From Candidatus Latescibacterota bacterium (GTDB lineage Bacteria; Latescibacterota; CBDEFO01), in the NCBI GenBank assembly GCA_965248755.1, contig OZ252149.1, forward strand, positions 3,616,001 through 3,680,000: a stretch of DNA of 64,000 nucleotides, given 5' to 3'. Every line of letters starts with the position of its first letter. The stretch's first letter is position 1. Both the position numbers and the translations under genes were made by a program. This document shows, in pieces, positions 3,201 to 59,516 of this stretch. The notes under the pieces were generated by a model. That model had not been told where the DNA came from and did not search any database. It saw only the letters and a list, made by a program, of their open reading frames with translations.

Positions 3201-3972
3201 CGCGGAGTATTCCCATTCGACATCCAATCTGGCTGCGGCACAGGCTGGAATAGCTCTTCTGCCTCCTCGGCTGGAGATAATGGGAGCAGACGGAAGGTGG
3301 AAGACTATATCTGAGGATATGGGCTATCCCGCAGGAGAGCCGAAGGAGATGGTGGTAGAGATCATAGAGGATCCCCGATTGAATCTATCGGGGATAGATC
3401 GGGGGTCGGGGACCGACTATAAGATAAGGATCACCACCTCAATGCCCATCTACTGGGATCAGATCCTATTCGATATAATAGACGATCCGATACCCACAAA
3501 GGTGACGAGGCTTTCTCCCGTAGTGTCTGATCTCCACTGGAAGGGCTACGCCAGCTACTACTCCCCCGACGGACGAATGCCCAAGGTCTATGACTATTCA
3601 AAGATTAAGGGTTCTGCCCCCTGGATGGATCACACGGGCCGATACACCAGGTATGGGGATTGCCTTCCCCTTTTGACGGCGATTGATGACCAGTATGTCA
3701 TATTGTTCCACGGCGACGAGATCACGCTTAACTTCGACGCCTCCGATCTTCCACCCTTAGAAGATGGCACCGTGCGGGACTTCTTCTTCTTCGCGGACGG
3801 GTTCGGGAAGGATATGGACAATAACTCCCCCTATTCCCTCACAGTAGAGCCGCTGCCGTTTCACAGTATGAGCAGTTATCCATATCCTGAGGCTGAAAGC
3901 TACCCTTACGACGAACAGCACCTTTCCTATATCTATCAATACAATACGAGAGTAGTAAGCAGCAGAAAGTAG
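229..3972 (+). CDS. TPR + FG-GAP/VCBS repeat + ASPIC/UnbV (CRTAC1-like) exported protein, carrying in-frame repeat-element insertions
   Basis: Signal/lipoprotein-like N-terminus; TPR repeats; repeated DYDNDGDxD motifs; GIGAKV...VHFGIG...ILWPGG UnbV-ASPIC motif. Confidence 0.85.
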   Translation: MNRNYIPFTLSFVLLFGFIKCGDVEKKAKQVQRFPEEAYRHNNFGIAYLEQYNYSDAASEFAKSLSIAPKYPDAQINLGIAKFNMGKYDLALLELEKALLLSPDHPNIYYVIGLIYKAHADYQGAAGNFEKVVKHDPFDPFAHYNLGICLSRLGEIERAVEELEKVTSLDPNNSSAHYNLAMEFRRLNKTEDFKREMEIFTGLRKKGIATSVGLGYLEQGRYAEAVSRTETVSEELEDSSVEIRFTDVTYISGQESGVELISPRRKGEDVLATGIRGSFGDYDNDGALDIFIFGRLYRNKADGQFEDVTEEAGLKDTESISTGIFGDYDNDEDQDLLVVSSGAVILYKNDGDGQFEDVTQSANLRRLQGSDALIPDPRPHRGHVFADYDHDGDLDIYVVNADGKNALYRNNANGRFTDVTDEAKVPGGKWSTDCVFLDYDNDRDVDFCVASYDGSVNLYSNDRGGTFTDVAKESELSEVRKILDISAGDYDKDGYIDLLFTLEKGASLYRRSQESKRLFVLDPVSHTLSADAEPGSAYKLLDVDNDGDLDIVSLSSQGVRLFKNQWGSRKTSRDCGFADPVPISDNIAPAVSYQISSADFDNDGDIDLLVSYADTTKAGALLLRNDGGEKNGYLKVHLKGLNSNKDGIGAKVEIKAGGLSQKLELRGDRNGRTVHFGIGSRKKIDFVRILWPGGVRQTELDPSPDSLLLLEELDRKGTSCPIVYVWNGAEYQYITDILGGGIISYLISPGEYYYPDTDEYIKIPGEIFKPKQADNGQERLLRGFAPRNDQKEKTTELSSRTLSTVIASQAKQSRGRGTGDGGRNVERGEYSIQFANHLEEVIYLDKVELLAVDHPQGTEVYPNERLLSSPPYPRFKVHALSDPRVPFKAYDQDGNDILPYIRHRDRKYPSNFELLSPQFHGYAKEHSIILELLPPKDEIGSASQLLTGSGFSPLATTEARDVIASETKQSRRQQTVGNRATGKVILVLYGYAEYSHSTSNLAAAQAGIALLPPRLEIMGADGRWKTISEDMGYPAGEPKEMVVEIIEDPRLNLSGIDRGSGTDYKIRITTSMPIYWDQILFDIIDDPIPTKVTRLSPVVSDLHWKGYASYYSPDGRMPKVYDYSKIKGSAPWMDHTGRYTRYGDCLPLLTAIDDQYVILFHGDEITLNFDASDLPPLEDGTVRDFFFFADGFGKDMDNNSPYSLTVEPLPFHSMSSYPYPEAESYPYDEQHLSYIYQYNTRVVSSRK
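2562..2668. repeat. GAGATTGCTTCG...CTCGCAATGAC/GTCATTGCGAG...CGAAGCAATCTC palindromic element, in-frame within CDS
   Basis: Terminal and internal inverted repeats; related copies at 3040-3139, 4003-4103, ~14095-14150, 19816-19938, 20791-20930, 22389-22512, 59376-59489. Confidence 0.85.
3373..3393. repeat. 21-bp palindrome CCCCGATTGAATCTATCGGGG (dispersed family)
   Basis: Identical or near-identical copies at 5151, 7409, 14100, 21072, 27863, 28273, 30470, 41379, 46568, 59405. Confidence 0.9.
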
Positions 3973-4117
3973 GTGGGGAAGCGAGGCGGTATCCCTGGTG
4001 ACGAGATCACTTGGCTATCCTCGAAATGTTCAGTCGGGGATAGCAATGACTGAGGCAAAACCAACCAACGTCGTAGCAAGGGCTGAAACCCCGAGGCAAT
4101 CTCACCTGTGTATCTAT

Positions 4118-4300
4118 TCAGGCTTCCCACGGATCGTATTCTGCCTTTTTCAAAAAGCCCAAGACATTCTCTCTGGCAATAAGATACCTTTTCTCCGGTT
4201 TGTAGGCAGAGAACCTGCCAGACGCTATCAGATGCCGCACGTGCCTCTCTGAACACTTCAAAGCGCGTGCGGCTTCCTGGACCGTAAGGAGTTCTTTCAT
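4118..4300 (-). CDS. Excisionase-like helix-turn-helix protein (HTH_17)
   Basis: LLTVQEAARALKCSERHVRHLIASGRF pattern; 60 aa. Confidence 0.8.
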   Translation of the reverse strand: MKELLTVQEAARALKCSERHVRHLIASGRFSAYKPEKRYLIARENVLGFLKKAEYDPWEA

Positions 4301-4305
4301 CCGAA

Positions 4306-4788
4306 CTACGTACCGCCCTTTTCCGGGATTAGACTTTCTTCATCCCATCTCACACAGATGAATAGGGCCGCAAGACCGTCCTGCTGTTCCCATCTGTACG
4401 GAATATCGGCTTTCTCAAGCTGATGGGCCGCAAATGCTAATTCCTCCTTTGGATACCAGTCTGTCAATTGATACAGGATACGTGGAGCTCCTTTCTCCTC
4501 CGCGTCCGCGGTGAATCTCCCACTTTCAAGCAGTTTTCTTATCCCATCCAGGCCGCCCTTTCTCCTGTAAGCCGAGCCTTTACTCTGCAGTTCCTTGATA
4601 ATCTGTACAGTCTCTATGATCTCCTCTGGATAGTAAAAGCGTCTCCCCTTCTTCTCATATTTGACGGTCCCTTTAGGGATCAAGCCGGCCCTGACGTAGT
4701 TTCCCAGAGTCTGATAGTTGATCTTCGCCCTTTTGCATATTTCATCACCGCGCAGTAAGCGGTGTGGGTGCTCTGTTGCCTCATCCAT
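4306..4788 (-). CDS. MerR-like HTH DNA-binding protein
   Basis: EICKRAKINYQTLGNYVRAGLIP...RRFYYPEE MerR-type HTH. Confidence 0.7.
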   Translation of the reverse strand: MDEATEHPHRLLRGDEICKRAKINYQTLGNYVRAGLIPKGTVKYEKKGRRFYYPEEIIETVQIIKELQSKGSAYRRKGGLDGIRKLLESGRFTADAEEKGAPRILYQLTDWYPKEELAFAAHQLEKADIPYRWEQQDGLAALFICVRWDEESLIPEKGGT

Positions 4789-5058
4789 TTAGTCTACCAC
4801 CTCCTTGCCTCTTGTTGAGGCCACAGCCTGTCCAATTTCAAAGCGCATCTCGTCTGATACCTGATAATCATCATCCGAAGGAGGTACAGACTCCGGTATG
4901 ACCTCCTGCAGAAATATCATCCCCTGGGTCTCAAGCCAGATGACGCAGTACTCCTGCTGGTCGTCATCAGAAACACATCCCATATATTGTGTCCCGCATA
5001 CCTCGAAATCACTCTTTAAGTGCATTTGACTCTCCTCTCTTTGAACAGTAGATAGCAC
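4789..5058 (-). CDS. Hypothetical protein
   Basis: ORF abutting the next gene in the same-strand cluster; likely start about 5025. Confidence 0.5.
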   Translation of the reverse strand: MLSTVQREESQMHLKSDFEVCGTQYMGCVSDDDQQEYCVIWLETQGMIFLQEVIPESVPPSDDDYQVSDEMRFEIGQAVASTRGKEVVD

Positions 5059-5319
5059 GGAGCCAGATTGCTTTGCTTTGTTCGCAGTAACAGTTTTTCA
5101 CTTTGCTCCTTCCTCATTATGACGGATAATTCCCCGAAGCAATCCCCGACCCCCGAATGAATCTATCGGGGGTTCAATCGGGGACAAGCAACAGGAGACA
5201 GTGCCCCCGTCTACTCGGCGAACACGGTGGGTGTGCTCAAAGGGCGAGCGGACTTTGCCCCTACACAGAACGTTGCATCTGTGGGGGCAGACGCGCTGTC
5301 TGTCCGGGCCTTTCCGCGT

Positions 5320-6489
5320 CTACTGACCACCGTCTACCTGTAGTTTGACATCTCTTTCGAAGACTTTCCGCAGCAATTTGTCGTAATTTTCTTCGATGAA
5401 CTCAGCCATAAACAAGTTGGGGACATTCAGTGCGACCTCATCCTCAGATATCTTATCTATGTAAAGCCCTGAAAACCACGTTAGGTATGACTGATGCTTG
5501 ATTTCCTTTCTGATCAATTCCTTATAGTGGTCCCATTCGTTTTTGTGAGGGGATCGGTCAATTTGTCTTTCCCTTTCTAACTGTTCTTCCTTTAGCTTGG
5601 CTTCACGAGTTCTTTCACGTTCCTCCTCTTGAACTTTTAGTTCCTGTCTTTTGCGCTCCTGTTGATTCTTTCTTTCTCTTTCTTCTAACGCCATGCCGAT
5701 CGTGTGTTCCACCAGTCCGAAGTGTCTTGGAGAGCAGTTGTCACGCGCCCATTTTGCGGCGTATTCTACATCTCGGAGGCTGTATCCCATCTTCTGAAGC
5801 TTATTTACGGTTCCTATGCCAAGAGTCATAAAGGATTTGGATACATCATCCGGGCTGTTTTTACGGTAGAAGTGGGTGATTATTTCTCTTTTGCTTTTTT
5901 CAGGTTCATCAACAGCCTTCTTGAGACAGAGGTGGGTTCGTGCGTTGCCTCTTGAAGAATCATCAACATCATCTTTGACGTAACCGATGCATCCACAGGC
6001 TGAGTCTAAGTCATCCTCTGGGTGCCCGTGCATGATGTTGTCTGTTTCTAAGTCGTCTATTCCTAAGTCGTCTGTTATATTGTAAGGAGGGGACAGTTCT
6101 GTCACTTCTTGAGGGGACAAAGTTGTCACTTCTGGAGGGGTCACTTCTGACCTGTCTTGACCTTTTACAACAGAAATTACCGCGTTTCGACCCAGGCCTT
6201 GTTGCTTTACAGATACGAGTCCAACGTCTTTGAGCTCCTTAAGTCCTCTCTTTATAGTTCTCTCAGACCTTCTGAGGACTTCAGCTATCTTTTTGTGTCC
6301 AGCAAAACAGCTATCACCCCAGTCCCACTTTAAAATAGCAGCATACACAAGCTTTGCATTGTTGGACAGACCATCCACAGATAGGACTAAATCTATCGGC
6401 ATCTTGGAGAACTGTTCACCTCTACCATTCTTGCTGCCCCCATTTGCACGGTCACCTGCCATTATGGAAGATGTGGAGTTGAAGGTCAT
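5320..6489 (-). CDS. Phage/plasmid-type replication initiator: N-terminal HTH_36-like domain, coiled coil, C-terminal DnaA N-terminal-like domain
   Basis: LSNNAKLVY...CFAGHKKIAEVLRRSERTIKRGLKELKDVGLV; C-terminal QSYLTWFSGL...LNVPNLFMAEFIEENY; internal iteron-like repeats. Confidence 0.75.
   Translation of the reverse strand: MTFNSTSSIMAGDRANGGSKNGRGEQFSKMPIDLVLSVDGLSNNAKLVYAAILKWDWGDSCFAGHKKIAEVLRRSERTIKRGLKELKDVGLVSVKQQGLGRNAVISVVKGQDRSEVTPPEVTTLSPQEVTELSPPYNITDDLGIDDLETDNIMHGHPEDDLDSACGCIGYVKDDVDDSSRGNARTHLCLKKAVDEPEKSKREIITHFYRKNSPDDVSKSFMTLGIGTVNKLQKMGYSLRDVEYAAKWARDNCSPRHFGLVEHTIGMALEERERKNQQERKRQELKVQEEERERTREAKLKEEQLERERQIDRSPHKNEWDHYKELIRKEIKHQSYLTWFSGLYIDKISEDEVALNVPNLFMAEFIEENYDKLLRKVFERDVKLQVDGGQ
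6087..6149. repeat. Iteron-like 24-bp direct repeats within the rep gene
   Basis: GAGGGGACAGTTCTGTCACTTCTT / GAGGGGACAAAGTTGTCACTTCTG / GAGGGGTCACTTCTG. Confidence 0.65.
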
Positions 6490-6713
6490 CTTTTACTCCT
6501 TTTTTTATGTAGGGCAGGCGCTGATCTGCGCTAAACCTGGTACTGCGCATACGTACAGGTCTTCATGCTATAATGTAATGAATATTTGTTCTTCTGTCAA
6601 GTGCTAAAGGTGTAAGCGAGTGACTGTCGGTTCACGCAAGGGCAGTTCCACTGCCTCGTCAGGTCAGATCTCGGTGAGGCTTTCAGCCTCTACGTCCGAC
6701 CCGAAAAAAAGCC

Positions 6714-6742
6714 TTGACACTCTGCAAATTAGTTGGTAAACT
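6714..6742 (+). promoter_or_regulatory. Sigma70-type promoter upstream of ssb
   Basis: TTGACA-17 bp-TAAACT. Confidence 0.6.
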
Positions 6743-6859
6743 TAAGCGGTTACAAGGATAAGAATTAAGCATCGAAAAACAGGTGGCAGCGGCAAACAGG
6801 GAGGGAGAGGAAAGAGCGTCTGCTGACTGCTGTCCACTATTCTTAAGGAGTGTAGAAAG

Positions 6860-7384
6860 ATGGCACGCGGAACGGTAAACAAGGCTATACTTATAGGGCG
6901 CTTAGGCGCAGATCCAGAGTTGAGACATACCACCGGAGGGACACCGGTGGCAAATTTTAATATAGCCACAGATGAAGGTTGGACCGACGGCAGTGGTGAA
7001 AAGCAGGAAAGGACCGAGTGGCACAGCATTGTGGCGTGGAGCAGATCAGCAGAAATGTGCAGTGAGTATCTTTCTAAAGGCAGCAGGGTCTATATCGAGG
7101 GCAGGATCCAGACAAGATCGTGGGAAGGTCAGGACGGTGTCAAGAAGTATAAGACGGAAATTGTAGCTCGACACGTCGAGATGCTAGATACGCGGCAGGA
7201 GGCGGAGCGCTACAGAGAACAGGATTATAGGGAGGCACAAGCTCCATCCTCCCAGGAGGAAGGGACTCCTGAATCACAGCAAGACAAGCAAGGTTCTGAT
7301 AGACGGGAAGAGCGTGAGACCACTCCAGGCGAGACAACCGAACCGTCTGTTTCGGAAGAAGAGGACGATGACCTTCCGTTTTGA
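6860..7384 (+). CDS. ssb: Single-stranded DNA-binding protein
   Basis: [17 protein letters not shown]...TEWH; C-terminal DDDLPF. Confidence 0.97.
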
Positions 7385-7531
7385 GTGAGTGAGCAGGTCC
7401 CCGAAAGTCCCCGATAGGTTCAATCGGGGATAGATTTGACTGAAGGCAGGGAAAGGCAAGGGCAGACCAGTGTGTCTGCCCTGAAAATAACTTAGAGGCG
7501 AGGTAAACTCGCCCTTAAAGACAGGGGACAG

Positions 7532-10201: not shown

Positions 10202-12560
10202 ATGAATGAACCTTTAGTACAGTGGACGTTATTAAACAATTTCGAGTTCTTATCCAAATCATTGGATTTTAGAATTGCAAGGAAAAGAGGTCAGGAAATT
10301 ACAACTGATTTTGGGAGGATTGATTTTATTGTAGAAGATTTCAATACTAATCAGATGATTGTCGAATTGGAAACAGTTTTAAACCAGAAAAACAAATTAG
10401 AATACTGTTTTAAGCAGCTGATTAATTACAAAAATGTGCGTTTTACTGACCAAACAGAATATTGCCTATTATATGCCTCTGAAACTAATGCAAACTCAAG
10501 ACTTCGTATTCATAGGTTTGGTAAAGCTAATAATATTCTAATACGAACTTATTCCTTAAATGATATTAAGGGGCTTTACACATCAACTTTAGAAAGGCTA
10601 AGTCTGAGCTTTGGATTAGCTTTGCCGAAACCTAAAACTTACACAATCTCCTATTTAAGATGGTTAAATAAGATTCTAAAGCCGTTTGATGATTTCACTA
10701 AGGATAATCATACCGCTCCCCTTGACAGAGCGACAAATATTTCGCAAATTGGGGTTTGAGAAGGGAGGTCAAGGTGTCGAGCCCCGAAGTGAAAGATGGT
10801 AAGCGCTGGACGGCGACCCGTAAGGGAGAGATTGTGTTGGCTCTTTTGAGAGGAGCAGATCTATCTGAGGTGTGTCGTAAGAATGGAATTAGCCAGTCGC
10901 AGGCGTATGCTTGGCGTGATAGTTTCTTAGAAGGGGGCCAGGAGAGTCTGAAGTCTCGGCGTGGTCGCAAGGATCCGAAGGAGCGAGAGGTTAGCCGGTT
11001 GGAGCGCAAGGTAGGGCAGTTGACGCTCCAGTTGGAGATACTCGAAGAGGTAGCCCGTCTAAAAAAAACGAAGCGGTTGCCTTGAGTGGGCGGTTTTTGG
11101 GTCGAGGCTATTCCCGCAAGGTGGTAGCTTTGGCTTTGGGTTTGCATCGTTCGACTCTGTATAGGTTTAGGGATAGAGGTGTCAGTTCTTCTGTTAAAGA
11201 GCCTGTGATAGATGAGGAGCTTGCTTTTCGTATTCGAGGGATACTGGACCAAGAAGAGGCATTTGGTCACAGGCGGGTTTGGGCGCATCTTCGTTTCAAG
11301 GAAGGGGAATGTGTCAACGTTAAGAAGGTTCATAGGATAATGAAGCTTAAGGGGTGGCAGTGTAAGCTGTGGAATCGTCCCGGGAGAAAGGGGCCACAGG
11401 TTGCCCAGAAGCGTTCTGTGGTGGATAGTCCCGACAGTTTGTGGTCGAGTGACTTGACAAAGATTTACTGTGGAAAAGATGGTTGGTGTCCTCTTATTGC
11501 GGTGGTGGACAACGGAAGCCGGGAGGTTCCTGGGTATCGTTTTAGTCGAAAAGGGAGGGCACTGGAGGCCACAGATGCCCTGGATCGGGCCGTGATCTCT
11601 CGATACACTTCCAAGGAGGCTGTCCCCCAGGGTCTCACTTTGCGCTCTGACAATGGTTCCATCTTTTTGGCTCGGGCCTATTTGGCCAGTACCGAATATT
11701 GGGGAATTCGTCAGGAATACATACCAAGTGGTAAACCCGATTGGAACGGTGTTGTAGAGCGTTTTTTCAGGACCCTCAAGCAAGAGTGTGTTTGGCTTCA
11801 CAAGTTTGAATCCTTTGAACAGGCTGAGAAGATCATATCTCAGTGGATCGATAATTACAACAAGAACAGGCTTCATTCATCCCTGGGATATAAGACCCCA
11901 AAAGAGTGGAGAAAACAATTTTATCTACTACCCCAGGTTGCTTAATTGGTGTCGCTTTCCTGGGAAGCAGTACATAATTTGAATGTAAATGAAGTAGCTA
12001 AGTACTTCACTTCCCCAAAGTCAACGAATTTCAGTTGCTATTCTAGATTGGCATTAGATCTTGAAATGATTAGTAAAGAGACAAACTCTTATGTACTTAC
12101 ACAGAACGGCAGGGACTATGTCACTAATTTTAATCCTGAGATCCATGTTGCATCTAATCTCTCTTCAATTAATCTGACTAATGAGCAAAAGAAGGTTTTG
12201 TTGAGAGTAATCACAAATGGGAATTGGACTCTCCACAAGGTCAGCATCTACTGGTTTCTACGCTTTATGGAAGTTACAAATGGTGAATGGATACCTAATT
12301 TTAAAGAATTCGATGCATCCAAGCTTGATCTTGTCAATGGCTTGTTCGGGGTCAGTTACAAAATCAGAACCATGTATGAATTCTTAAAGTTTGTCTGCAA
12401 TTGGTGTTTAGAGTTGGGGTTAGTGGAGAGAATTAAGACAAATTCAACCTATGATAGAATCTACCTAACCCCACTAGGAATTGAAATAAATAATATTTTC
12501 AGTGTTGATCTACAATTGAAAAAGTCAAGGCTTAACCTAAACTTCACATATTTAGAATGA
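10202..12560 (+). pseudogene. PD-(D/E)XK (NucS-like) nuclease with putative winged-helix C-terminus, interrupted by IS
   Basis: GRIDFIVED...IVELET; removing IS 10709-11974 and one TAAT restores the frame FTKDN|LNVNEV; AT-rich. Confidence 0.75.
10709..11974 (+). mobile_element. IS3-family insertion sequence, intact copy (1266 bp, TSD TAAT)
   Basis: orfA 10756-11085 (HTH), orfB 11082-11945 (DDE/rve), A-run frameshift site, imperfect IRs, 4-bp TSD. Confidence 0.95.
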
Positions 12561-13269: not shown

Positions 13270-14037
13270 ATGTTAGGCGACATATATTTCTTATCCGATG
13301 CTCACATAGGCCTCGAGGAGGAGAAGACCGAAGTCATCAAGCAGGAAAAGCTCATTTCCTTTATACGGGGTTTAAAGGGGAAAGCCGAGGTTCTCTACAT
13401 AGTGGGGGACCTCTTTGACTTTTGGTTTGAGTACAAGACCGTCGTGCCCAAAAGGGGACTTAAGGTCCTCTTTGAACTTGAAAGGCTGATCGAATCTGGA
13501 ACAAGGGTTGTGTATATAGCGGGAAATCACGATCTTTGGGGTGATACGAGTACCGTTGGTTCGTTCTTATCTGATGAAATAGGGATTGAGTTTAGCCCCG
13601 ATCCTGTAGACGTGTGCCATCACAGCTTGAAAATTCACATCGCTCACGGCGACGGTCTCTCCGGGAGTAGGGGAGACAGGCTCGTAAAATGGATACTCAA
13701 AAATCGCGCCTGCATCCGACTCTTTAGACTGCTCCATCCCGATCTTGGGAACCTGGTGGCCAAGCTTGTGTCAAAAACCAGCAGAGACTCACGCCCCCCG
13801 ACCCCCGATTTAATCGGAGGGGGGGCAATGGGAGGCTGGAACGACTTCAAGGAAATCTATGTCCAAGCGGCAGAGGACAGACTTCAAGAGGGCTTTGATG
13901 TAGTAGTATTCGGGCACCTTCATATCCCCTTGGTGGAAGAGTTAGAATGCGGAACTTTGGTCATCTTAGGTGACTGGATAAGGCACTTTACCTACGGTAT
14001 TCTACAGGACGGAAAGATCAGCCTGAGGGAGGTATAA
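13270..14037 (+). CDS. lpxH: UDP-2,3-diacylglucosamine diphosphatase (metallophosphoesterase)
   Basis: SDAH, GDLFDFW, GNHD, HGD, GHLH motifs. Confidence 0.85.
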   Translation: MLGDIYFLSDAHIGLEEEKTEVIKQEKLISFIRGLKGKAEVLYIVGDLFDFWFEYKTVVPKRGLKVLFELERLIESGTRVVYIAGNHDLWGDTSTVGSFLSDEIGIEFSPDPVDVCHHSLKIHIAHGDGLSGSRGDRLVKWILKNRACIRLFRLLHPDLGNLVAKLVSKTSRDSRPPTPDLIGGGAMGGWNDFKEIYVQAAEDRLQEGFDVVVFGHLHIPLVEELECGTLVILGDWIRHFTYGILQDGKISLREV

Positions 14038-14432
14038 GTAACGCAGGGGTGAGATTCCCTCGCCAGGTAAACAGGGCACCAGCTACGATACCTTGAGTGC
14101 CCGATTGAATCTATCGGGGCTTCGGGGCGAGTGCTCCTCGCAATGACCAAAAACAACAGTCAACAACGACTGGAAGCCGTAGCCCCCGTGAATAACGCCC
14201 GAAGATTCGGTCCGGACTTTGACGATGCTTATCAATATGTTGCAGCTGAGAAATAGGATCTAACTATCGTCAGTTTTTACGGGCACTTTGATCGCACCGA
14301 AAGGGGGAGAAAGACCCCGCCGGAGCTTCTGACAGGGTAACAAGATGTAAGGGCTGCATAACTCGACCCCTGAGTTCAGATATGGGAGGTTCTGGCCTGT
14401 CCACCCCTGATTGAGTCTATCTCTAATTGAAC

Positions 14433-15416
14433 CTATCGGGGGATGCTTTCTACTGCCTTTTGCAGTGCCCTCATATCCTCAGGCATATCGGACGAGAAAG
14501 AAAGATGCCTCTTTGTCCTTGGGTGGACAAATCCTAAAGTCTGTGCGTGGAGGGCTTGACGAGGCATTAACTTGAGCAACCTTCGGGCGACAAGTTGAAA
14601 TTTGGAGGCGATCCCCTTTACCTTTTTCTCTCTGCCACCATAGAGGGGGTCTCCAAATATGGGGTGACCTATAAAGGAAAAGTGGACTCTTATCTGATGC
14701 GTCCTTCCCGTTTCAAGCTCAGCGGTGACTGAGGAGATAAAAGCGAACTCGTTTTCGATGTGGAACCTTGTGGCTGCGTATTTGGAGGAATCTGCCCCCA
14801 TCACAGACATCCTCGTCCGCTCTTTCCTGTGACGACCTATGGGAGCTTCGATCCTATTTGACTGATAGGAGCTTATCTTTCCCCACACAAATGTCCTGTA
14901 TTTCCTCGTGATGGATCTTTCTTTAAGCTGTTCTGAAAGGCAGATGTGGGCGCGGTCGTTCTTTGCCACCATCAAAAGACCTGATGTGTCCTTGTCCAGC
15001 CGGTGGACGATTCCGGGCCGCAGCACGCCATTTATGCCTGACAGGTCTCGGCAGTGGTATAAAAGGGCGTTGACCAGAGTGCCGGTGTAGAAACCTGAAG
15101 CAGGGTGTGTGATCATCCCTGCCGGTTTGTTGACTACAACGAGGTCTTCGTCCTCAAACAAAATATCCAGAGGGATTGCCTCTGGAGTCAGATCGTAGGC
15201 TGTGGGATCTGGGATCTCAACTGATATTATATCTTCGGGTTGTACAGCCCAACTGGGCTTTTTGATCTGAGCGTTATTTACCTCAACAGCTCCATCTTTG
15301 ATCAGTTTCTTGATTTGGGAGCGGGAAATGCTCAAATCGCTTTCTGACAGGAATACGTCAAGTCGTATCCCTCTGCACTGGTTCTTTGAGACTTGGAGCT
15401 CTGCTTTTTTCCCCAT
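14433..15416 (-). CDS. rluD: RluA/RluD-family pseudouridine synthase
   Basis: S4 domain; GIVHRLDKDTSG; TGRTHQIRVH. Confidence 0.93.
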   Translation of the reverse strand: MGKKAELQVSKNQCRGIRLDVFLSESDLSISRSQIKKLIKDGAVEVNNAQIKKPSWAVQPEDIISVEIPDPTAYDLTPEAIPLDILFEDEDLVVVNKPAGMITHPASGFYTGTLVNALLYHCRDLSGINGVLRPGIVHRLDKDTSGLLMVAKNDRAHICLSEQLKERSITRKYRTFVWGKISSYQSNRIEAPIGRHRKERTRMSVMGADSSKYAATRFHIENEFAFISSVTAELETGRTHQIRVHFSFIGHPIFGDPLYGGREKKVKGIASKFQLVARRLLKLMPRQALHAQTLGFVHPRTKRHLSFSSDMPEDMRALQKAVESIPR

Positions 15417-20764: not shown

Positions 20765-21098
20765 TTAGTCCTTTTATAAGGAATTGTTTCGAGATTGCAT
20801 CGCAGACCTTTCGCTCTAGGCTAAAGGCTCTGCGCTTCAGCTTGCAATGACATTGTTTGGCTTCGATCTTCAGTCATTCGTAAGAGGCAAAACCTGGGGG
20901 GTCGGAATTGCTGTCTGACGAAGCAATCTCCCTGTCTGCTGGGCAAACACATGGGTTTGCCCCTGCATATGTTACTGTCTACTGGGCGAGGCGCCGTGGG
21001 CGCTTCGCTGGGGAGTGGAGACAGCAAAGCACGAAGTGCCATCGCCCCTACTGTCTTTTGCCTTTCCCTGCCCCCGATTGAATCTATCGGGGGACTGT

Positions 21099-27791: not shown

Positions 27792-28136
27792 ATGCTGGAG
27801 TGCTGCTATAACGTTAGTGGCGAACGGGATAAGGACAAGTACCGCTGGCACGAGCTTGTAAGCCACGATAGACTCAATCGGGGGGATGTTTTCAATCTTG
27901 CGGTAGAGCTACAGTGGAATCAGCGTGTCAAGGATATTACGCCCCTTTGGAGAGGGGAGGAGTACGGCGTAATCAATCTGCAGGATGGGGGCGTCTTTGA
28001 CGGAGTTCAGGCTACATATTCTCTAAAGACCAATCTGGATCTGACCCTCGGAACGCTCCTGTTTGCAACGTCAAACGGAGATAAGTTGGACGCCGCACAT
28101 AAAATCCACTCCGCCCAACTTGCCTGGTATTTTTGA
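27792..28136 (+). CDS. Hypothetical protein or fragment of an outer-membrane protein
   Basis: Beta-strand-like sequence ending LAWYF; contains a palindrome insertion. Confidence 0.35.
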   Translation: MLECCYNVSGERDKDKYRWHELVSHDRLNRGDVFNLAVELQWNQRVKDITPLWRGEEYGVINLQDGGVFDGVQATYSLKTNLDLTLGTLLFATSNGDKLDAAHKIHSAQLAWYF

Positions 28137-28248: not shown

Positions 28249-28327
28249 GTAGGGGCAGACCCACGTGTCTGTCCCCGATAGATTCAATCGGGGATCTGAT
28301 TGGGCGAACACATGGGTTCGCCCCTAC
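28249..28327. repeat. GTAG-type REP doublet with a nested 21-bp palindrome
   Basis: GTAGGGGCAGACCCACGTGTCTGTCCC ... GGGCGAACACATGGGTTCGCCCCTAC; related REPs near 5241, 7461, 15917, 20941, 21118, 55594. Confidence 0.8.
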
Positions 28328-30408: not shown

Positions 30409-30534
30409 CTTTATTCCCCTTTTGCTTACAGGAGGCAGAGGAAGATGCGTCCTGTCTATTCCCGATAGTCCCCGATACGTTTAATCGGGGATAGATGCAA
30501 TCAGGGGCTACAGTCCCCTTATGTATGCGGATGG

Positions 30535-39997: not shown

Positions 39998-42900
39998 TCA
40001 GTTATTACTACCTGCTAACAATTCCTTATTAACATCCCAACCACTTCTCTGCAGTGCTTCTTCTTGTCCGGTAATACTATCCTTATGAACCGCAATGCAA
40101 AGGAGACGAGATGGACGTGACATCCCTACAAAAGCCATTTTTAGATTTTGAATTACTCTTTCTTTTGGCTTAGTATGCTCTCCCTTTATATAATTTATTA
40201 TTCGCTTAATGTCATAGTCATAAAAGAAAGTTTCAAGGTAACATGTTGCCGTATGGGTTTCGCCTTTGACACCATGAATAGTTGAAACTTCTATGTCGAT
40301 ATCAGTTGTTCCAGAAGAATATTTGTAGATGTTATTGCTCGAATGGGTTTCTTCATCATCCGCTTCCAAATCTGATGAATTTATAAAGATTGTAAGTTCA
40401 ACATTCACCTGATAATTAAAAAACTCCTTAAATTCATTGGTTAGATAATGTTTTATTTCTTCAAAAACTTCTTCTTGCCTGTGTATCTTCAAACACCAAT
40501 TGGCGAGCCTTACCCTAAAATCCTGGTAAAAATCCGAGTTTTTTTCTGATATATATTTATGCAGTTTTTTCTCTGTGAATGCCCTTCCATCGTCAGTTAC
40601 TCCTGCAATTCTTAAGCACTTTAAGAAAGCTTCCCCTAACCTCTTCTTGTAAAAATTAACTCCATTAGATGAAATAAAACTATCAGATTGTGGAGCTAAA
40701 TAACTTTTTAGCATACCGCTCCCCTTGACAGGGCGACAAATATTTTGCAAATTGGGGTTTGAGAAAGGAGGTCAAGGTGTCAAGCCCCGAAGTGAAAGAT
40801 GGTAAGCGCTGGACGGCGACCCGTAAGGTAGAGGTGGTGTTGGCTGTTTTGAAAGGAGCGAATGTATCAGAGGTGTGTTGGAAGAATGGAATTAGCCAGT
40901 CACAGGCGTATGCTTGGCGTGATAGTTTCTTGGAAGGAGGCCAGGAGAGTCTGAAGTCTCGGCGTGGTCGCAAGGATGCGAAGGAGCGGGAGGTCAGCCG
41001 GTTGGAGCGTAAGGTAGGGCACTTAACCCTCCAGTTGGAGATACTCGAGGAGGTAGCCCGTCTAAAAAAAACGAAGCGGTTGCCTTGAGTGAGCGGTTTT
41101 TGGGTCGAGGCTATTCCCGGAAGGTGGTAGCTTTGGCTTTGGGTTTGCATCGTTCGACTCTGTGTAGGCTTAGGTATAGAGGTGTCAGTTCTTCTGTCGA
41201 AGAGTCTGTGATAGATGAACAGCTTGCTTTTCGTATTCGAGGGATACTCGACCAAGAAGAGGCATTTGGTCACAGGCGGGTTTGGGCGCATCTTCGTTTC
41301 AAGGAAGGGGCATATGTCAACATCAAGAAGGTTCATAGGATAATGAAGCTTAAGGGGTGGCAGTGTAAGCTGTGGAATCCCCGATAGAATCAATCGGGGA
41401 CCCCGGGAGAAAGGGGCCACAGGTTGCCCAGAAGCGTTCTGTGATGGATCGTCCTGACAGTCTCTGGTCGGCTGACTTGACCAAGATCTATTGTGGGGAA
41501 GATGGTTGGTGTCCTCTTATTGCGGTGGTGGACAACGGGAGTCGGGAGGTTCCCCGGGTATCGTTTTAGTCGAAAAGGGAGGGCACTGGAGGCCACAGAT
41601 GCCCTGGATCGGGCCGTGATCTCTCGATACACTTCCTAAGGAGGCTGTCCCCCAGGGTCTCACTTTGCGCTCTGACAACGGCTCCATCTTTTTGTCTCGG
41701 ACCTATTTGGCAAGTACCGAATATTGGGACATTCGTCAAGAATATATTCCGAGCGGAAAGGCCGATTGGAACGGGGTCATAGAACGTTTTTTCAGGACCC
41801 TCAAGCAGGAGTGTGTGTGGCTTCACAATTTCAAGTCCTTTGAACAAGCTGAGAAGATCATATCTCAGTGGATCGATAATTACAACAAGAACTGGCTTCA
41901 TTCATCTCTGGGATACAAGACCCCGGAAGAGTGGAGAAAACAATTTTATCTGCTACCCCAAGTTGCTTAATTGATGTCGCTTTTCTGGGGGGCAGTACAT
42001 TAGATTACTAAATTCAGTTTTTTTAACTTTTATTTCTTTGGAGTAGCCGTCCCAATAACTTGGTATAGTTCTTTTTGTGTCATGCGGTTTTCCACGCCAT
42101 CCAACTGCTTTAAATACCCTTTTCTCATTCTGATGTAGATTATTTCTGATAATTATTTCACCGAATTTATCTAATACCTGCTGAATAGTATAATCATCAT
42201 AAACAATGATAACAGGAGTAATTTCATTTTGCCTGCCATTTCCCGTTATTGTCTGCCGGAAAACACAAAGTTTTTCAACCTTGCTTGCTATAGCGTTAGA
42301 AAATCTTTTACTACCTGTAATACACATAGTTCTGTCGTCAATTACTGCCCAACCGCATTCCAAGTTAGGGTCATAGTCAAATATTGATTGATTTAAATCA
42401 CCTATTTTTTGAATAACAACATTATCATTGAATATTTTATTCATCAGTTCGGACTGTATTGTACTTGAATCCTGCATTTCATCTATGAAAACATAGGCAA
42501 ATCTTTTTGCAAATACGTTTTTCAAATTAGGGTGCTTTTCAATGTGTCTTTCTGCTATATAATATGCATCATCATAGCTTAGTATTCCATCCAAAAGTAT
42601 CCGTTCTTTTAGTCTTAGCAATCTATCATAGTGTGCTCTTTGAGTTGTATCATTTGAATCTAATTTAAGTCTTTTACATATACCATTATCATCCAGGGAA
42701 AAATCTTCAAATCTAAGTGAATAAGGCAAATCTTTATGACCGCTCTGATAGCAAAATGCATTTGTTTTTCTACCTAAATATTTTCTCGTTCTTTCCATCC
42801 TATCAAGATAAATTTCGTTGTTTATGAATAATGGTCTTCGGTTGAACTGATTGATATACGTCGGTATCGCAAGATATTTATCCACGAAACTTTGAATTGT

Positions 42901-43184: not shown

Positions 43185-44450
43185 TGTACTGCTTCCCAGG
43201 AAAGCGACACCAATTAAGCAACCTGGGGTAGTAGATAAAATTGTTTTCTCCACTCTTTTGGGGTCTTATATCCCAGGGATGAATGAAGCCTGTTCTTGTT
43301 GTAATTATCGATCCACTGAGATATGATCTTCTCAGCCTGTTCAAAGGATTCAAACTTGTGAAGCCAAACACACTCTTGCTTGAGGGTCCTGAAAAAACGC
43401 TCTACAACACCGTTCCAATCGGGTTTACCACTTGGTATGTATTCCTGACGAATTCCCCAATATTCGGTACTGGCCAAATAGGCCCGAGCCAAAAAGATGG
43501 AACCATTGTCAGAGCGCAAAGTGAGACCCTGGGGGACAGCCTCCTTGGAAGTGTATCGAGAGATCACGGCCCGATCCAGGGCATCTGTGGCCTCCAGTGC
43601 CCTCCCTTTTCGACTAAAACGATACCCAGGAACCTCCCGGCTTCCGTTGTCCACCACCGCAATAAGAGGACACCAACCATCTTTTCCACAGTAAATCTTT
43701 GTCAAGTCACTCGACCACAAACTGTCGGGACTATCCACCACAGAACGCTTCTGGGCAACCTGTGGCCCCTTTCTCCCGGGACGATTCCACAGCTTACACT
43801 GCCACCCCTTAAGCTTCATTATCCTATGAACCTTCTTAACGTTGACACATTCCCCTTCCTTGAAACGAAGATGCGCCCAAACCCGCCTGTGACCAAATGC
43901 CTCTTCTTGGTCCAGTATCCCTCGAATACGAAAAGCAAGCTCCTCATCTATCACAGGCTCTTTAACAGAAGAACTGACACCTCTATCCCTAAACCTATAC
44001 AGAGTCGAACGATGCAAACCCAAAGCCAAAGCTACCACCTTGCGGGAATAGCCTCGACCCAAAAACCGCCCACTCAAGGCAACCGCTTCGTTTTTTTTAG
44101 ACGGGCTACCTCTTCGAGTATCTCCAACTGGAGCGTCAACTGCCCTACCTTGCGCTCCAACCGGCTAACCTCTCGCTCCTTCGGATCCTTGCGACCACGC
44201 CGAGACTTCAGACTCTCCTGGCCCCCTTCTAAGAAACTATCACGCCAAGCATACGCCTGCGACTGGCTAATTCCATTCTTACGACACACCTCAGATAGAT
44301 CTGCTCCTCTCAAAAGAGCCAACACAATCTCTCCCTTACGGGTCGCCGTCCAGCGCTTACCATCTTTCACTTCGGGGCTCGACACCTTGACCTCCCTTCT
44401 CAAACCCCAATTTGCGAAATATTTGTCGCTCTGTCAAGGGGAGCGGTATG
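43185..44450 (-). mobile_element. IS3-family intact copy (flanks ATAT/GTTT, no TSD of its own)
   Basis: orfA and orfB proteins identical to the 10709 copy. Confidence 0.95.
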
Positions 44451-44620: not shown

Positions 44621-45886
44621 TGTACTGCTTCCCAGGAAAGCGACACCAATTAAGCAACCTGGGGTAGTAGATAAAATTGTTTTCTCCACTCTTTTGGGGT
44701 CTTATATCCCAGGGATGAATGAAGCCTGTTCTTGTTGTAATTATCGATCCACTGAGATATGATCTTCTCAGCCTGTTCAAAGGATTCAAACTTGTGAAGC
44801 CAAACACACTCTTGCTTGAGGGTCCTGAAAAAACGCTCTACAACACCGTTCCAATCGGGTTTACCACTTGGTATGTATTCCTGACGAATTCCCCAATATT
44901 CGGTACTGGCCAAATAGGCCCGAGCCAAAAAGATGGAACCATTGTCAGAGCGCAAAGTGAGACCCTGGGGGACAGCCTCCTTGGAAGTGTATCGAGAGAT
45001 CACGGCCCGATCCAGGGCATCTGTGGCCTCCAGTGCCCTCCCTTTTCGACTAAAACGATACCCAGGAACCTCCCGGCTTCCGTTGTCCACCACCGCAATA
45101 AGAGGACACCAACCATCTTTTCCACAGTAAATCTTTGTCAAGTCACTCGACCACAAACTGTCGGGACTATCCACCACAGAACGCTTCTGGGCAACCTGTG
45201 GCCCCTTTCTCCCGGGACGATTCCACAGCTTACACTGCCACCCCTTAAGCTTCATTATCCTATGAACCTTCTTAACGTTGACACATTCCCCTTCCTTGAA
45301 ACGAAGATGCGCCCAAACCCGCCTGTGACCAAATGCCTCTTCTTGGTCCAGTATCCCTCGAATACGAAAAGCAAGCTCCTCATCTATCACAGGCTCTTTA
45401 ACAGAAGAACTGACACCTCTATCCCTAAACCTATACAGAGTCGAACGATGCAAACCCAAAGCCAAAGCTACCACCTTGCGGGAATAGCCTCGACCCAAAA
45501 ACCGCCCACTCAAGGCAACCGCTTCGTTTTTTTTAGACGGGCTACCTCTTCGAGTATCTCCAACTGGAGCGTCAACTGCCCTACCTTGCGCTCCAACCGG
45601 CTAACCTCTCGCTCCTTCGGATCCTTGCGACCACGCCGAGACTTCAGACTCTCCTGGCCCCCTTCTAAGAAACTATCACGCCAAGCATACGCCTGCGACT
45701 GGCTAATTCCATTCTTACGACACACCTCAGATAGATCTGCTCCTCTCAAAAGAGCCAACACAATCTCTCCCTTACGGGTCGCCGTCCAGCGCTTACCATC
45801 TTTCACTTCGGGGCTCGACACCTTGACCTCCCTTCTCAAACCCCAATTTGCGAAATATTTGTCGCTCTGTCAAGGGGAGCGGTATG
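44621..45886 (-). mobile_element. IS3-family intact copy (TSD AAGA)
   Basis: Identical orfA/orfB proteins; 4-bp TSD. Confidence 0.95.
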
Positions 45887-45967
45887 AAGAGGACTTGACC
45901 TACAGGCTGTTTCGTTGTATCTTTTGCTATAGCATTTGTACAATAATGTATAAATACTATAACAAAA

Positions 45968-47255
45968 TGTACTGCCCCCCAGAAAAGCGACATCAATTAA
46001 GCAACTTGGGGTAGCAGATAAAATTGTTTTCTCCACTCTTCCGGGGTCTTGTATCCCAGGGATGAATGAAGCCTGTTCTTGTTGTAATTATCGATCCACT
46101 GAGATATGATCTTCTCAGCTTGTTCAAAGGACTTGAAATTGTGAAGCCACACACACTCCTGCTTGAGGGTCCTGAAAAAACGTTCTATGACCCCGTTCCA
46201 ATCGGCCTTTCCGCTCGGAATATATTCTTGACGAATGTCCCAATATTCGGTACTTGCCAAATAGGTCCGAGACAAAAAGATGGAGCCGTTGTCAGAGCGC
46301 AAAGTGAGACCCTGGGGGACAGCCTCCTTAGGAAGTGTATCGAGAGATCACGGCCCGATCCAGGGCATCTGTGGCCTCCAGTGCCCTCCCTTTTCGACTA
46401 AAACGATACCCGGGGAACCTCCCGACTCCCGTTGTCCACCACCGCAATAAGAGGACACCAACCATCTTCCCCACAATAGATCTTGGTCAAGTCAGCCGAC
46501 CAGAGACTGTCAGGACGATCCATCACAGAACGCTTCTGGGCAACCTGTGGCCCCTTTCTCCCGGGGTCCCCGATTGATTCTATCGGGGATTCCACAGCTT
46601 ACACTGCCACCCCTTAAGCTTCATTATCCTATGAACCTTCTTGATGTTGACATATGCCCCTTCCTTGAAACGAAGATGCGCCCAAACCCGCCTGTGACCA
46701 AATGCCTCTTCTTGGTCGAGTATCCCTCGAATACGAAAAGCAAGCTGTTCATCTATCACAGACTCTTCGACAGAAGAACTGACACCTCTATACCTAAGCC
46801 TACACAGAGTCGAACGATGCAAACCCAAAGCCAAAGCTACCACCTTCCGGGAATAGCCTCGACCCAAAAACCGCTCACTCAAGGCAACCGCTTCGTTTTT
46901 TTTAGACGGGCTACCTCCTCGAGTATCTCCAACTGGAGGGTTAAGTGCCCTACCTTACGCTCCAACCGGCTGACCTCCCGCTCCTTCGCATCCTTGCGAC
47001 CACGCCGAGACTTCAGACTCTCCTGGCCTCCTTCCAAGAAACTATCACGCCAAGCATACGCCTGTGACTGGCTAATTCCATTCTTCCAACACACCTCTGA
47101 TACATTCGCTCCTTTCAAAACAGCCAACACCACCTCTACCTTACGGGTCGCCGTCCAGCGCTTACCATCTTTCACTTCGGGGCTTGACACCTTGACCTCC
47201 TTTCTCAAACCCCAATTTGCAAAATATTTGTCGCCCTGTCAAGGGGAGCGGTATG
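45968..47255 (-). mobile_element. IS3-family variant copy with a disrupted orfB (TSD AAAA)
   Basis: Same lesions as the 40712 copy; palindrome at 46568-46588. Confidence 0.93.
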
Positions 47256-47299
47256 AAAAGTCTATAACAATAGTCTATTTCTTGTCGTAAGGAGGAGAG

Positions 47300-58545: not shown

Positions 58546-58560
58546 CGGATTGTGAACCTG

Positions 58561-59313
58561 CTATTCCCAGCCTTGATTTTCAAGTAGCTGTTCCTCTGGC
58601 ACGTCCCCACACACATAGGCGGGACATCCCATAGCTACCTTACGGGGAGGCACATCCTTTGTGACTACCGATCCTGCCGCAACAAGGGCGTCTTCCCCTA
58701 TCACCTTTCCGGGGAGTATGACCGCTCCTGCCCCTATTCTTCCCCCCCTTTTAACTGTTACACCCTTGATGTGTCTTAGTCTCTCCTGGGTCCTTCCCAC
58801 AAAGTTGTCGTTGGTGGTCGTAACCTGCGGCGACACAAATACGAAGTCCTCAAGCGTGGAGTAGGCCGTGATATAACATTCGGTCTCCAATTTGCACTTT
58901 ACTCCGACACTACAATAGTTCTCGACAGTCACACCTCTGCCGATGATAGTCAGATCGCCTATCTGGGTATTTTCTCTGACAGTGGCCAGATCTGCCACGA
59001 GCACCTTCTCCCCGACTGTGGTCCCCATATAGACGCAGGCGAAAGTGCCTATTATAGAGCCGTTTCCGATCTTTGCGGGCGCAAGGTGCTTCTCCTGTTT
59101 AAGTATGCTCCGCGCAGCCCTGAAAGGGCGCTTTCCTATGACTGCGTGATCGTCTATTCTGACGCCGTCCCCTATGATCGCATCGGGATGTATGACGACA
59201 TGGTGGCCGATCCTGCAGTCCTTGCCCACCACAGCGCCGTCACAGATTACGGCGTAGTGTCCAGCTTGTGTATCCTCTCCGACTTGAGCTTTGTCTCCGA
59301 TGAAGGCTTTCAC
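58561..59313 (-). CDS. Hexapeptide-repeat N-acetyltransferase (DapH/WxcM-like)
   Basis: Left-handed beta-helix repeats; IGAGAVILPG. Confidence 0.88.
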   Translation of the reverse strand: MKAFIGDKAQVGEDTQAGHYAVICDGAVVGKDCRIGHHVVIHPDAIIGDGVRIDDHAVIGKRPFRAARSILKQEKHLAPAKIGNGSIIGTFACVYMGTTVGEKVLVADLATVRENTQIGDLTIIGRGVTVENYCSVGVKCKLETECYITAYSTLEDFVFVSPQVTTTNDNFVGRTQERLRHIKGVTVKRGGRIGAGAVILPGKVIGEDALVAAGSVVTKDVPPRKVAMGCPAYVCGDVPEEQLLENQGWE

Positions 59314-59516
59314 AGAGTTCCCCTTTGCTCTTTACCCAAAGAGTTCTTCGATAGCCCTTTAACGGCGGGCCAAATGAGATTACTTTGCCCAGTTTGTGCC
59401 TTGTCCCCGAATGAGTCTATCGCGGGAATCGGGGGCTTGCTTTCTCCCCAGAAAGCGGCCGCGCAGCCCTCTATGACAAAGGCAATCTCACCTGACTACT
59501 GCATACTTGTTTACGG

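Follow-up and report, generated by a model that had tools for sequence, protein, structure and literature searches.

A mobile 23-nt hairpin without a gene of its own

The 64-kb stretch of Candidatus Latescibacterota DNA analysed here (the window) and the genome to which it belongs (G000) carry a mobile unit, Y-CCCCGATTGAATCTATCGGGG-R, a 23-nt hairpin that contains no gene and is present at many sites in one of two related genomes and absent at the same sites from the other. We lean towards the view that this gene-less hairpin is the core of a tagged repeat and has spread by copy-in from existing copies. A whole-genome count at ≤3 mismatches yielded 530 copies in 465 distinct flank contexts, against 0 in the reversed-genome control. 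An earlier reading of the sequence alone (the sequence-only reading) had described a palindrome of ~21 bp behaving as an ultra-short mobile element. Its mobility is borne out by many empty alleles and by non-promoter placement, and its length is corrected to 23 nt, with a closing pair that covaries (T-A 215, C-G 153, C-A 32 and T-G 31 in 497 distinct contexts; odds ratio 33 for T-A/C-G). Both sides of pair 5/17 were changed 30 times versus 4.8 expected, which may reflect one propagated variant, and the remaining stem pairs did not covary in these 497 contexts.

Eleven sites in the window matched the unit with ≤3 mismatches (3373, 5151, 7409, 14099, 21072, 27863, 28273, 30470, 41379, 46568 and 59405), against a shuffle mean of 0.01. 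About 13 copies had been listed before: these 11 stand, with 14100 now placed at 14099, the one at 4018 is a worn copy at 4019 with 5 mismatches, and the one at 14404-14442 is a nested or tandem pair, the inner member of which (14421) differs from the unit at 4 positions. The copies reported within a REP (28273), larger hairpins (4019 and 14099) and an ORF (3373) are all visible in the sequence, and the host hairpins of 4019 and 14099 are of the GTCATTGC..GCAATC type. The copies outside insertion sequences, with their state in the congener G001, are as follows.

3372..3394, plus strand: exact 23-nt hairpin, the inner one of several nested units, translated in frame within a TPR/FG-GAP protein (ORF 229-3972); present in G001 too
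4018..4040, minus strand: worn copy with 5 mismatches, occupying the loop of a host hairpin of GTCATTGC type; present in G001 too
5144..5184, plus strand: nested site, copy 5150-5172 inside an older, oppositely oriented copy
7408..7430, minus strand: copy with 1 mismatch
13803..13823, plus strand: worn nested copy, additional to those listed before; G001 12 bases longer here
14098..14120, plus strand: copy inside a GTCATTGCGAG-type host hairpin; no spanning G001 stretch
14404..14442, plus strand: worn copies, nested or tandem pair
21071..21093, plus strand: exact copy in a CTACTGT heptamer tract; G001 empty, 3 bases replaced, net +20
27862..27884, minus strand: copy with 2 mismatches
28272..28294, minus strand: exact copy, placed at the foot of one arm of a GTAG REP; different, shorter sequence in G001
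30469..30507, minus strand: nested copies; G001 shorter here by 15 bases
59404..59435, plus strand: nested copy where G001 has a single one, 9 bases shorter

Four homologues (4/4) have a 10-residue gap at copy 3373. Contigs from three sequencing runs (X1, X6 and X8) show 20 gap letters across the copy at 21071..21093. The X1 contig, empty at 21072, carries G001-type letters at 21041-21042; it may stem from a co-occurring relative and is therefore not counted as within-population polymorphism.

Filled and empty alleles

In the window, the IS3 family (NCBIfam NF033516, 208 bits versus a cut-off of 160) provides both allelic states:

41378..41400, minus strand: hairpin copy in orfB of IS3 copy 40712-41973; TAG at 41385-41387
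46567..46589, plus strand: identical insertion in IS3 copy 45994-47256; TAG at 46580-46582
11375..11378, plus strand: empty target TCGT in intact IS3 copy 10701-11950
43781..43784, minus strand: empty target in intact IS3 copy 43209-44453
45217..45220, minus strand: empty target in intact IS3 copy 44645-45887

The alignment previously proposed, with three empty and two filled copies and a net +20 insertion that creates a TAG, was reproduced. The two filled copies, however, stand for one insertion event, not two, from which both descend. The IS3 lineage disabled by the hairpin has nonetheless multiplied to 15 copies.

Beyond this pair, further empty alleles were found by comparison with 2.8 of the 4.6 Mb of G001 (95% identity): 39 sites among 252 orthologous ones and 44 among 261 were empty, some repeat-borne ones possibly being paralogues rather than orthologues. 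G001 also holds copies absent from G000. Gain is the direction of change in the rootable cases: PDB 4h3v has a 9-residue gap at a +27 site, the four homologues compared at copy 3373 show the gap of 10 residues, and orfB is intact in the empty IS3 copies. No in-place inversion was found among 114 shared sites.

Scored with the 23-nt model, 72 unique events defined the junctions. The hairpin replaced 3–5 target bases in 35 of them (4 bases in 21, 3 in 7 and 5 in 7) and 2 bases in 2 events; 14 had a net gain of +27, and 21 were of other kinds. A central CG occurred in 10 of the 15 non-nested 4-base targets, against a background of 4.3%. The empty sites (n = 26) folded only slightly better than random intergenic DNA (-5.7 versus -4.9 kcal/mol, p = 0.044). 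The targets are usually unlike the end bases of the unit, and many have only 1–2 bases in common with them.

These junctions bear on the idea that the hairpins are footprints left by a larger transposon or MITE after excision, or that the empty alleles are hairpin deletions. The inverted ends would suit such an origin, as would the far larger indels by which some G000/G001 pairs differ. However, the empty alleles show either a gene made whole again or an outer copy that is perfect, their targets mostly do not have the end bases of the unit that a deletion would retain, and the 70 ORFs with copies on both sides, judged by their N-termini, read as ordinary genes or IS fragments, none resembling a dedicated mobiliser. 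We therefore consider this origin very improbable. Nor does the unit match a MITE as such, which spans 70–300 bp, carries the terminal repeats of its parent IS and makes a target duplication of fixed size: it is 23 nt long, its target loss varies, and 443 of 572 copies, scored with 21-nt ends, have no target duplication. The previous observation that there is no clean target duplication holds.

Among the +27 events, a few duplicate 4 bases exactly or nearly so (TCAA at G000 2601095, CTTG at 4004483), but most bring in CCTG/CTTG/CAGG-type bases absent from the target, so that the +27 form mostly carries a CCTG/CTTG flank along and is not a target duplication. Nine of 13 +27 events lie in ORFs, versus 6 of 29 for +19/+20 events; the frame-keeping +27 and +18 forms are likely survivors of selection inside genes.

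Placement in the genome

Copies would be expected at fixed positions relative to promoters if they were transcription-factor sites. Their positions are not fixed: divergent gaps are slightly poor in copies (27 seen versus 41 expected), and the distance to the next start ranges from 28 to 335 nt. It might still be argued that selection has made and kept them as terminators or as sites to which a transcription factor or nucleoid protein of the host binds, as the unit is a near-palindrome of operator size and copies common to G000 and G001 diverge by 3.3%, compared with 4.2% in their flanks. Yet bases were gained in blocks of 19–27, IS3 orfB was broken, the unit nests in itself, only 2 of 150 other genomes searched in the phylum carry it (one with a single match), and Rfam gave no match within the window. 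Together with the divergent-gap deficit and the wide spread of distances, this makes a regulatory function as explanation exceedingly unlikely. As an origin, a selection-made binding site is refuted by the filled/empty pairs, and a transcription-factor site was rejected for having no fixed upstream position and no divergent-gap enrichment.

We found no replication-strand bias (253 of 530, a count for which irregular GC skew leaves origin and terminus uncertain) and no gene-strand bias (98 to 106). Relative to host repeats, copies show a strand bias in hosts of GTCATTGC type (51 to 27) and in heptamers (26 to 51), and show no orientation bias in GTAG REPs (7 to 11). Proteins gain loops of 6–10 residues from the insertions.

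Donor flanks and a proposed copy-in model

Several observations link new copies to existing ones. Flank mismatches were concentrated at positions -1 and +1 (13 and 11 of 37 events) and fell to 1–5 further out. The new flank 4-mer was commoner than the empty-allele 4-mer beside other copies at 27 of 40 sides and rarer at 10 (p = 0.004), although several 3-base events ran opposite to this overall result. Among 515 distinct loci, the G5A+C17T variant was associated with a nested CCGAC..G context (6/28 versus 6/487, odds ratio 22), and A/G at hairpin position 7 with a CCTG/CTTG flank (18/45 versus 22/470, odds ratio 14); at several loci with such a linked variant and flank, the other genome has the outer copy alone. 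This linkage of internal variants to flanks at unrelated loci points to gene-conversion copying from an existing copy.

In the copy-in model, a nick or break would arise at a CG/GA step, often within another hairpin repeat, and its repair would use an existing hairpin copy as template, overwriting 3–5 target bases and sometimes co-transferring 1–4 donor flank bases. We infer a sequence of break, single-stranded hairpin intermediate and template switch, probably catalysed by the repair proteins of the host, whether or not a repeat-associated nickase passing through takes part. Several points speak against copy-in: none of the families searched provided a catalyst; plain gene conversion needs homology, and many targets share only 1–2 bases with the unit ends; the exact or near 4-base duplications in a few +27 events are what a staggered-cut integrase would give; and neither the marginally better folding of the empty sites nor the lack of replication-strand and gene-strand bias and of orientation bias in GTAG REPs favours it.

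Such an unrecognised integrase, or an RNA-templated enzyme, might make staggered nicks 4 bases apart and produce a 4-base deletion (net +19) or a 4-base duplication (net +27) depending on nick order. The commonest junction classes are indeed 23-4 (21 events) and 23+4 (14 events), the hairpin has sharp ends and a covarying closing pair, and its T.T mismatch, retained in 468 of 497 contexts, could mark the strand. Nevertheless, we regard this enzyme as quite unlikely: most +27 additions are foreign to the target and linked to an internal variant, the concentration of +27 in ORFs is explained by selection, and the tested genomes have neither IS110 nor Cas1 in common, nor is there a reverse transcriptase in G001.

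Search for a mobiliser

The HUH/RAYT-type mover suggested by the sequence-only reading found no support, PF01797 being present in 0 of 2 genomes (G000 and G001; control positive in 6 of 14) and the junctions fitting templated copying better than HUH cut-and-paste. A reverse transcriptase is likewise unsupported as mover: PF00078 occurs twice in G000 and 0 times in G001, and the latter has copies that G000 lacks, although an RNA template is still conceivable. Searches of G000 for GIY-YIG (PF01541) returned only a UvrC-sized frame. DUF559 was absent from G000 and G061, Cas1 from G000 and G001, and Ku from five genomes (0/5). The AEP primase PF01896 was also found in 0/5, its control being positive in archaea only, a weak test for bacterial LigD. 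IS110 occurred in 2 of 5 genomes, G000 not among them, and a four-helix bundle protein as one stop-bearing copy in G000 and none in G001. UPF0102, with one copy in each of five genomes, is uninformative because 8 of 14 controls have it too.

Tagged repeats and Ssn-like genes

By its letters, the 23-nt hairpin corresponds to an Ssn-related repeat with a GTCA tag, reduced to its core without the tag. Metagenomes contain it, letter for letter, at the centre of repeats of the form GTCAT-...-ATCC; one of these is CCCCGAATGATTCTATCGGGG, with 16 matches and, in G000, 7 copies. At locus L268, the tagged hairpin lies on both flanks of an intact 94-aa Ssn-like ORF, and at L379 a near form flanks an Ssn-like gene. 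In G000, GTCAT is outside the 25 commonest flank 5-mers of the copies, and the sequences listed for this genome include no tagged copy of the 23-nt hairpin.

An Ssn-type single-strand GIY-YIG nuclease, which cuts tagged repeats, could accordingly be the dedicated mobiliser, its cassette having passed through, seeded the hairpin and driven its spread. Besides the shared core and the L268 flanks, this would agree with the Ssn-like cassette in G001, with six remnants of the cassette 5' end in G000 (tagged repeat plus first codons) and with the preference for one strand of GTCATTGC hosts. We nonetheless judge it unlikely. No Ssn-like gene was found in G000 or G061-G066, and such genes do not track the hairpin (6 of 15 carriers versus 8 of 23 non-carriers); 87 loci with this hairpin type held one full and one partial Ssn-like gene, and the G001 cassette is flanked by a short classical repeat, not by the 23-nt hairpin. 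Moreover, according to PMC11893778, SsnA depends on bases upstream of the palindrome and on a C that follows it, and its cut falls in the upstream flank. The free copies do not have these bases, and the ends of the 23-nt unit are not set by a cut at that place.

The identical 21-mer is also present in a group of Deltaproteobacteria, where a filled and an empty allele (L145 versus L409) obey the same junction rule, 3 bases having been replaced. Pairwise alignment of nine loci against L145 gave one clean empty allele, one nested form and seven loci not aligning across the site; at L407 the unit is inverted within the same host repeat. Viral contigs had 0 exact 21-mers, the looser hairpin pattern at 7 loci and Ssn-like relatives at 2 loci.

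It is conceivable, though doubtful, that these hairpins represent an undescribed widespread class of 20–27 nt, freed from nuclease-associated repeats and spreading by copy-in across phyla without an element-specific enzyme. Its rule would be that ~4 bases are overwritten at a CG/GA step, donor flanks are carried along and older copies become nested arrays. If so, bacteria would possess a natural short-template DNA-writing pathway, and copy-in, if real, would be an uncharacterised way of writing short sequences into DNA. The 72 scored events with their internal markers make it testable: the donor is defined, the targets have a rule, the co-transfer of flanks can be followed and there are candidate nickases.

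Comparison with known systems

We found no literature on the hairpin sequence, subscription journals apart; the supplements of PMC3733652 and PMC11893778 may list a variant. Its core links it to the NTS/Ssn-related motifs with SsnA nucleases (Chenal et al. 2025, PMC11893778) and the CGTC-tagged REPs (Di Nocera et al. 2013, PMC3733652), in the parts of these sources accessible to us, through the GTCAT-...-ATCC repeats flanking Ssn-like genes (L268, L379). Unlike NTS, which lie inside genes in 2% of cases in the accessible text of PMC11893778, the G000 copies have neither the GTCA tag before the hairpin nor the C-containing tail after it, are single or nested instead of head-to-head dimers, occur in frame in genes and do not co-occur with Ssn-like genes.

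GTAG REPs and REPINs with RAYT Y1 transposases, as covered in PMC3733652 (see also PMC3116915 and PMC3479197), resemble it in being imperfect hairpins with a conserved mismatch, in hundreds of mostly extragenic copies. The unit differs in lacking a GTAG tag, in moving as a single hairpin and in that neither genome yielded a Y1 gene. Of 572 copies, 17 have GTAG immediately to the left and 16 immediately to the right.

Rickettsia palindromic elements are several times longer than the 6–10 residues that are all our hairpin adds. What they share with it, in the sections of PMC3733652 and PMC3184786 on these elements and on intragenic REPs, is in-frame insertion into unrelated proteins.

The nearest known kind appears to be the small dispersed repeats (SDR) of Nostoc, a likeness of description. 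In extracts of PMC4390886 and PMC5861425, which treat the Nostocaceae SDRs and especially SDR5, the latter is, like our hairpin, very short and gene-less, inserts precisely at a short CG-containing site and has no known mobiliser. SDR5 inserts into HIP1 (GCGATCGC); the targets here are not HIP1, and G000 has no HIP1-like over-represented word (CGATCG at 0.56 and TCGA at 0.93 of expectation). In SDR-type repeats, the hairpin is backed by compensatory change. Nostocaceae SDRs are said to land in other repeats and genes, and Elhai et al. in 2008 reportedly described them as 21–27 nt long and proposed a gene-conversion model. Our hairpin has the features of this type, namely a length below 30 nt, high copy number, non-coding sequence, filled and empty alleles and compensatory change; unlike SDRs, it overwrites 3–5 bases, nests in itself and carries donor flanks.

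A 23-nt hairpin dispersed through the genome

The palindrome that the sequence-only reading had described as repeated in the window was recovered at 11 sites with up to three mismatches to the 21-mer (shuffle mean 0.01). The genome-wide count which that reading had proposed gave, in the genome holding the window (G000; one contig, 4.54 Mb), 105 exact copies, 530 at up to three mismatches and 572 at up to four, and the reversed genome, used as a control, yielded none at up to three. The bases flanking the 21-mer covary (T-A 215, C-G 153, C-A 32 and T-G 31 in 497 contexts) and the unit is therefore Y-21-R, 23 nt long. It folds into an imperfect hairpin, in which one centre base varies and a T.T mismatch is conserved (468 of the 497 contexts). 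The 530 copies have 465 distinct flank contexts, the two biggest same-flank groups (19 and 15 copies) being carried by a host repeat and an IS.

Features of the window (G001, a genome of the same genus)
4019, 13803, 14421, 30486: worn (degraded) or nested hairpin copies
21072: hairpin site, empty in G001
28273: hairpin site, other sequence in G001
30470, 59405: hairpin sites, shorter in G001
10701-11950, 40712-41973, 43209-44453, 44645-45887, 45994-47256: IS3-family copies, three of them in tandem
4306-7384: MerR/HTH gene, adjoined by ssb and a HTH_36 + DnaA_N protein resembling phage- or plasmid-type initiators
24600-25470: family of ~147-nt tandem repeats, present at dozens of loci in G000 and G001
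25801-27753: OLD-family ATPase/TOPRIM gene, hardly covered by related populations' reads
61787-63310: reverse transcriptase of 507 aa, closest in NCBIfam to Drt4 but with a score far under the cut-off

Among 333 distinct intergenic contexts, 22% were beside GTCATTGC-type hairpins, 15% heptamer tracts and 7% GTAG REPs, against 2.0%, 1.5% and 0.6% for 3000 random intergenic places. Orientation was biased relative to the GTCATTGC-type hosts (51 to 27) and the heptamer tracts (26 to 51), with no bias relative to GTAG REPs (7 to 11); empty sites folded just slightly better than random. Neither replichore nor gene-strand bias was seen. Positions fixed relative to promoters, which the earlier reading would have taken as the mark of a transcription-factor site, were absent: copies occupy 204 tandem, 46 convergent and 27 divergent gaps, with 199, 37 and 41 expected. 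Rfam gave no match in the window. We hold it very improbable that the hairpin is a protein site or terminator. Several copies tagged with CCTG stand at the 5' ends of paralogous genes for secreted proteins (G000 C1 2125003-2132134, G001 C8 740138-750955), some of them in signal-peptide-like stretches.

Filled and empty sites between congeners

G001 has 374 copies at up to one mismatch. In the 2.8 of its 4.6 Mb that were read (long alignments of mean 94.9% identity to G000), orthologous sites existed for 252 of the 572 G000 copies, 39 of them empty; of 336 G001 copies, 261 had such a site in G000, 44 of them empty. Wherever rooting is possible, the direction of change is gain. A 9-residue gap of PDB 4h3v falls exactly at a +27 site (net bases gained) of G001, ten residues are missing at window position 3373 from all four homologues, and in empty alleles orfB is intact or the outer copy perfect. 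A footprint or deletion product is a far-fetched explanation. We are highly confident that the hairpin is a real mobile insertion, as the sequence-only reading had surmised in calling it an ultra-short mobile element.

The filled/empty IS pair of that reading belongs to an IS3-family element, with three empty and two filled copies in the window. Across G000, 71 copies include 15 filled ones, which group as a single clade (support 100/100 in a tree with the hairpin removed), so the window pair is one old insertion in a lineage that went on moving even with the TAG in orfB. Among 9 copies in the stretch of G001 that was read, 7 are filled, and a lone empty copy among filled ones suggests exchange between copies. 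The element has at least 71 genome copies, about 50 of them near-identical (a recent burst), and the 15 copies of the filled clade multiplied although their orfB is broken. In a second, IS3-like lineage, a CTTG-tagged form stands directly before orfA (G000 C1 1129295, 1305942, 1982695, 2824053 and some 8 others).

When 150 further genomes of the phylum were searched, the motif occurred only in G001 and, as a single match, in G052. Genome contigs contained at least 80 loci; among the matches listed, a single record under the title Ca. Latescibacterota supplied most, and ten belong to records under the titles Deltaproteobacteria, Thermodesulfobacteriota and, in one case, Nanoarchaeia. That last one, an exact copy on a 3.5-kb contig (L217), may be mis-binned. 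In the genomes around G061, 13 of 41 carry the motif. Comparison of loci L145 and L409 showed the hairpin in place of three bases of a heptamer tract, and in L410 a nested copy is flanked by ACAGG; going by one clean pair, the hairpin appears to behave alike in this group of another phylum. L407 and L143, from two Deltaproteobacteria genomes, have it at matching positions of one host repeat, but in opposite orientations.

Junctions and probable copying from a donor

Merging near-identical flanks reduced 83 parsed events to 72 unique ones, in which the 23-mer replaced four bases 21 times, three 7 times, five 7 times and two twice; 14 events were net +27, and the remaining 21 were scattered, many being nested arrays. 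CG lies in the middle of 10 of 15 non-nested 4-base targets (4.3% in intergenic DNA), and within older hairpins the target is nearly always TCTA/TAGA adjoining the mismatch. A few +27 events are 4-base duplications; most add CCTG, CTTG or complements, absent from the target, and we read +27 as the probable product of a donor tagged in this way. Of 13 events in the +27 class, 9 fell within ORFs, compared with 6 of 29 for +19/+20, an excess that we read as probable selection for frame.

Of 37 events, 13 had a base at -1, and 11 a base at +1, that did not match the empty allele, with fewer differences farther out. In 40 sides, the altered flank 4-mer adjoined other copies more often than the 4-mer of the empty allele did in 27 and less often in 10. 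At unrelated loci, the G5A+C17T variant was tied to the nested CCGAC..G context (6/28 against 6/487) and a position-7 variant to the CCTG/CTTG flank (18/45 against 22/470); at several variant-flank loci, the other genome had only the outer copy. This linkage of variant and flank points to copying of an existing copy with its neighbours instead of a clean 23-base cut-and-paste. On balance, we consider copy-in repair from an existing hairpin the most likely mechanism. It would start where DNA is nicked or broken at a CG/GA step, in many cases inside another hairpin; repair would then copy an existing hairpin as template, using homology of 1-2 end bases, or of the outer arms where the target is an older copy.

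Tagged repeats and Ssn-like genes

In metagenomes, the hairpin, with small near-loop changes, is the core of GTCAT-...-ATCC repeats (at least 123 stretches; 80 read). These fit the NTS/SRM repeats flanking Ssn nuclease genes (PMC11893778) and also the CGTC REPs (PMC3733652). One such repeat stands on either side of an intact 94-aa Ssn-like ORF (putative GIY-YIG nuclease) in L268, and L379 has a near form; the Ssn-like label was assigned from size, the flanks, PF01541 as matched by the G001 protein, and 62% identity with the latter. This intact Ssn-like gene of G001 (L235, 1413-1770), which was not found in G000, lies between two classical NTS-type repeats, within a toxin-antitoxin-like stretch that is duplicated.

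This core position in repeats flanking the L268 ORF favours an Ssn nuclease as dedicated mover, which we nevertheless find doubtful. G000 has no Ssn-like gene, only six cassette 5'-end remnants (tagged repeat plus first five codons; C1 1852134, 2714208, 3031451, 3547856, 2979159, 1272074). Of 15 carriers, 6 have the gene, and so do 8 of 23 non-carriers (many genomes being incomplete and kin not independent). Moreover, SsnA mutagenesis in PMC11893778 showed that bases outside the palindrome are required, and free copies lack them. The Ssn link does not extend to the free form.

Comparison with known systems

Y1/RAYT, Ku, AEP primase, Cas1, IS110, DUF559 and RT are each absent from G000, G001 or both, and the HUH/RAYT-type mover once proposed is not supported. 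The search covered named families, and an unrecognised enzyme is possible as mover; insertion by an unknown staggered-cut or RNA-templated integrase seems to us slightly less probable than by an Ssn nuclease. We rejected the hairpin as a MITE and, with no Y1/RAYT gene found in G000 or G001, as a RAYT REP. The literature searched gave no description of its sequence, which the supplements of PMC3733652 and PMC11893778 may list. SRM/CGTC repeats are its sequence kin, but the hairpin fails their tag and gene tests. In its behaviour it works like the SDRs of Nostocaceae, among which insertion into HIP1 is described; the kind of element to which it belongs is known, and poorly understood.
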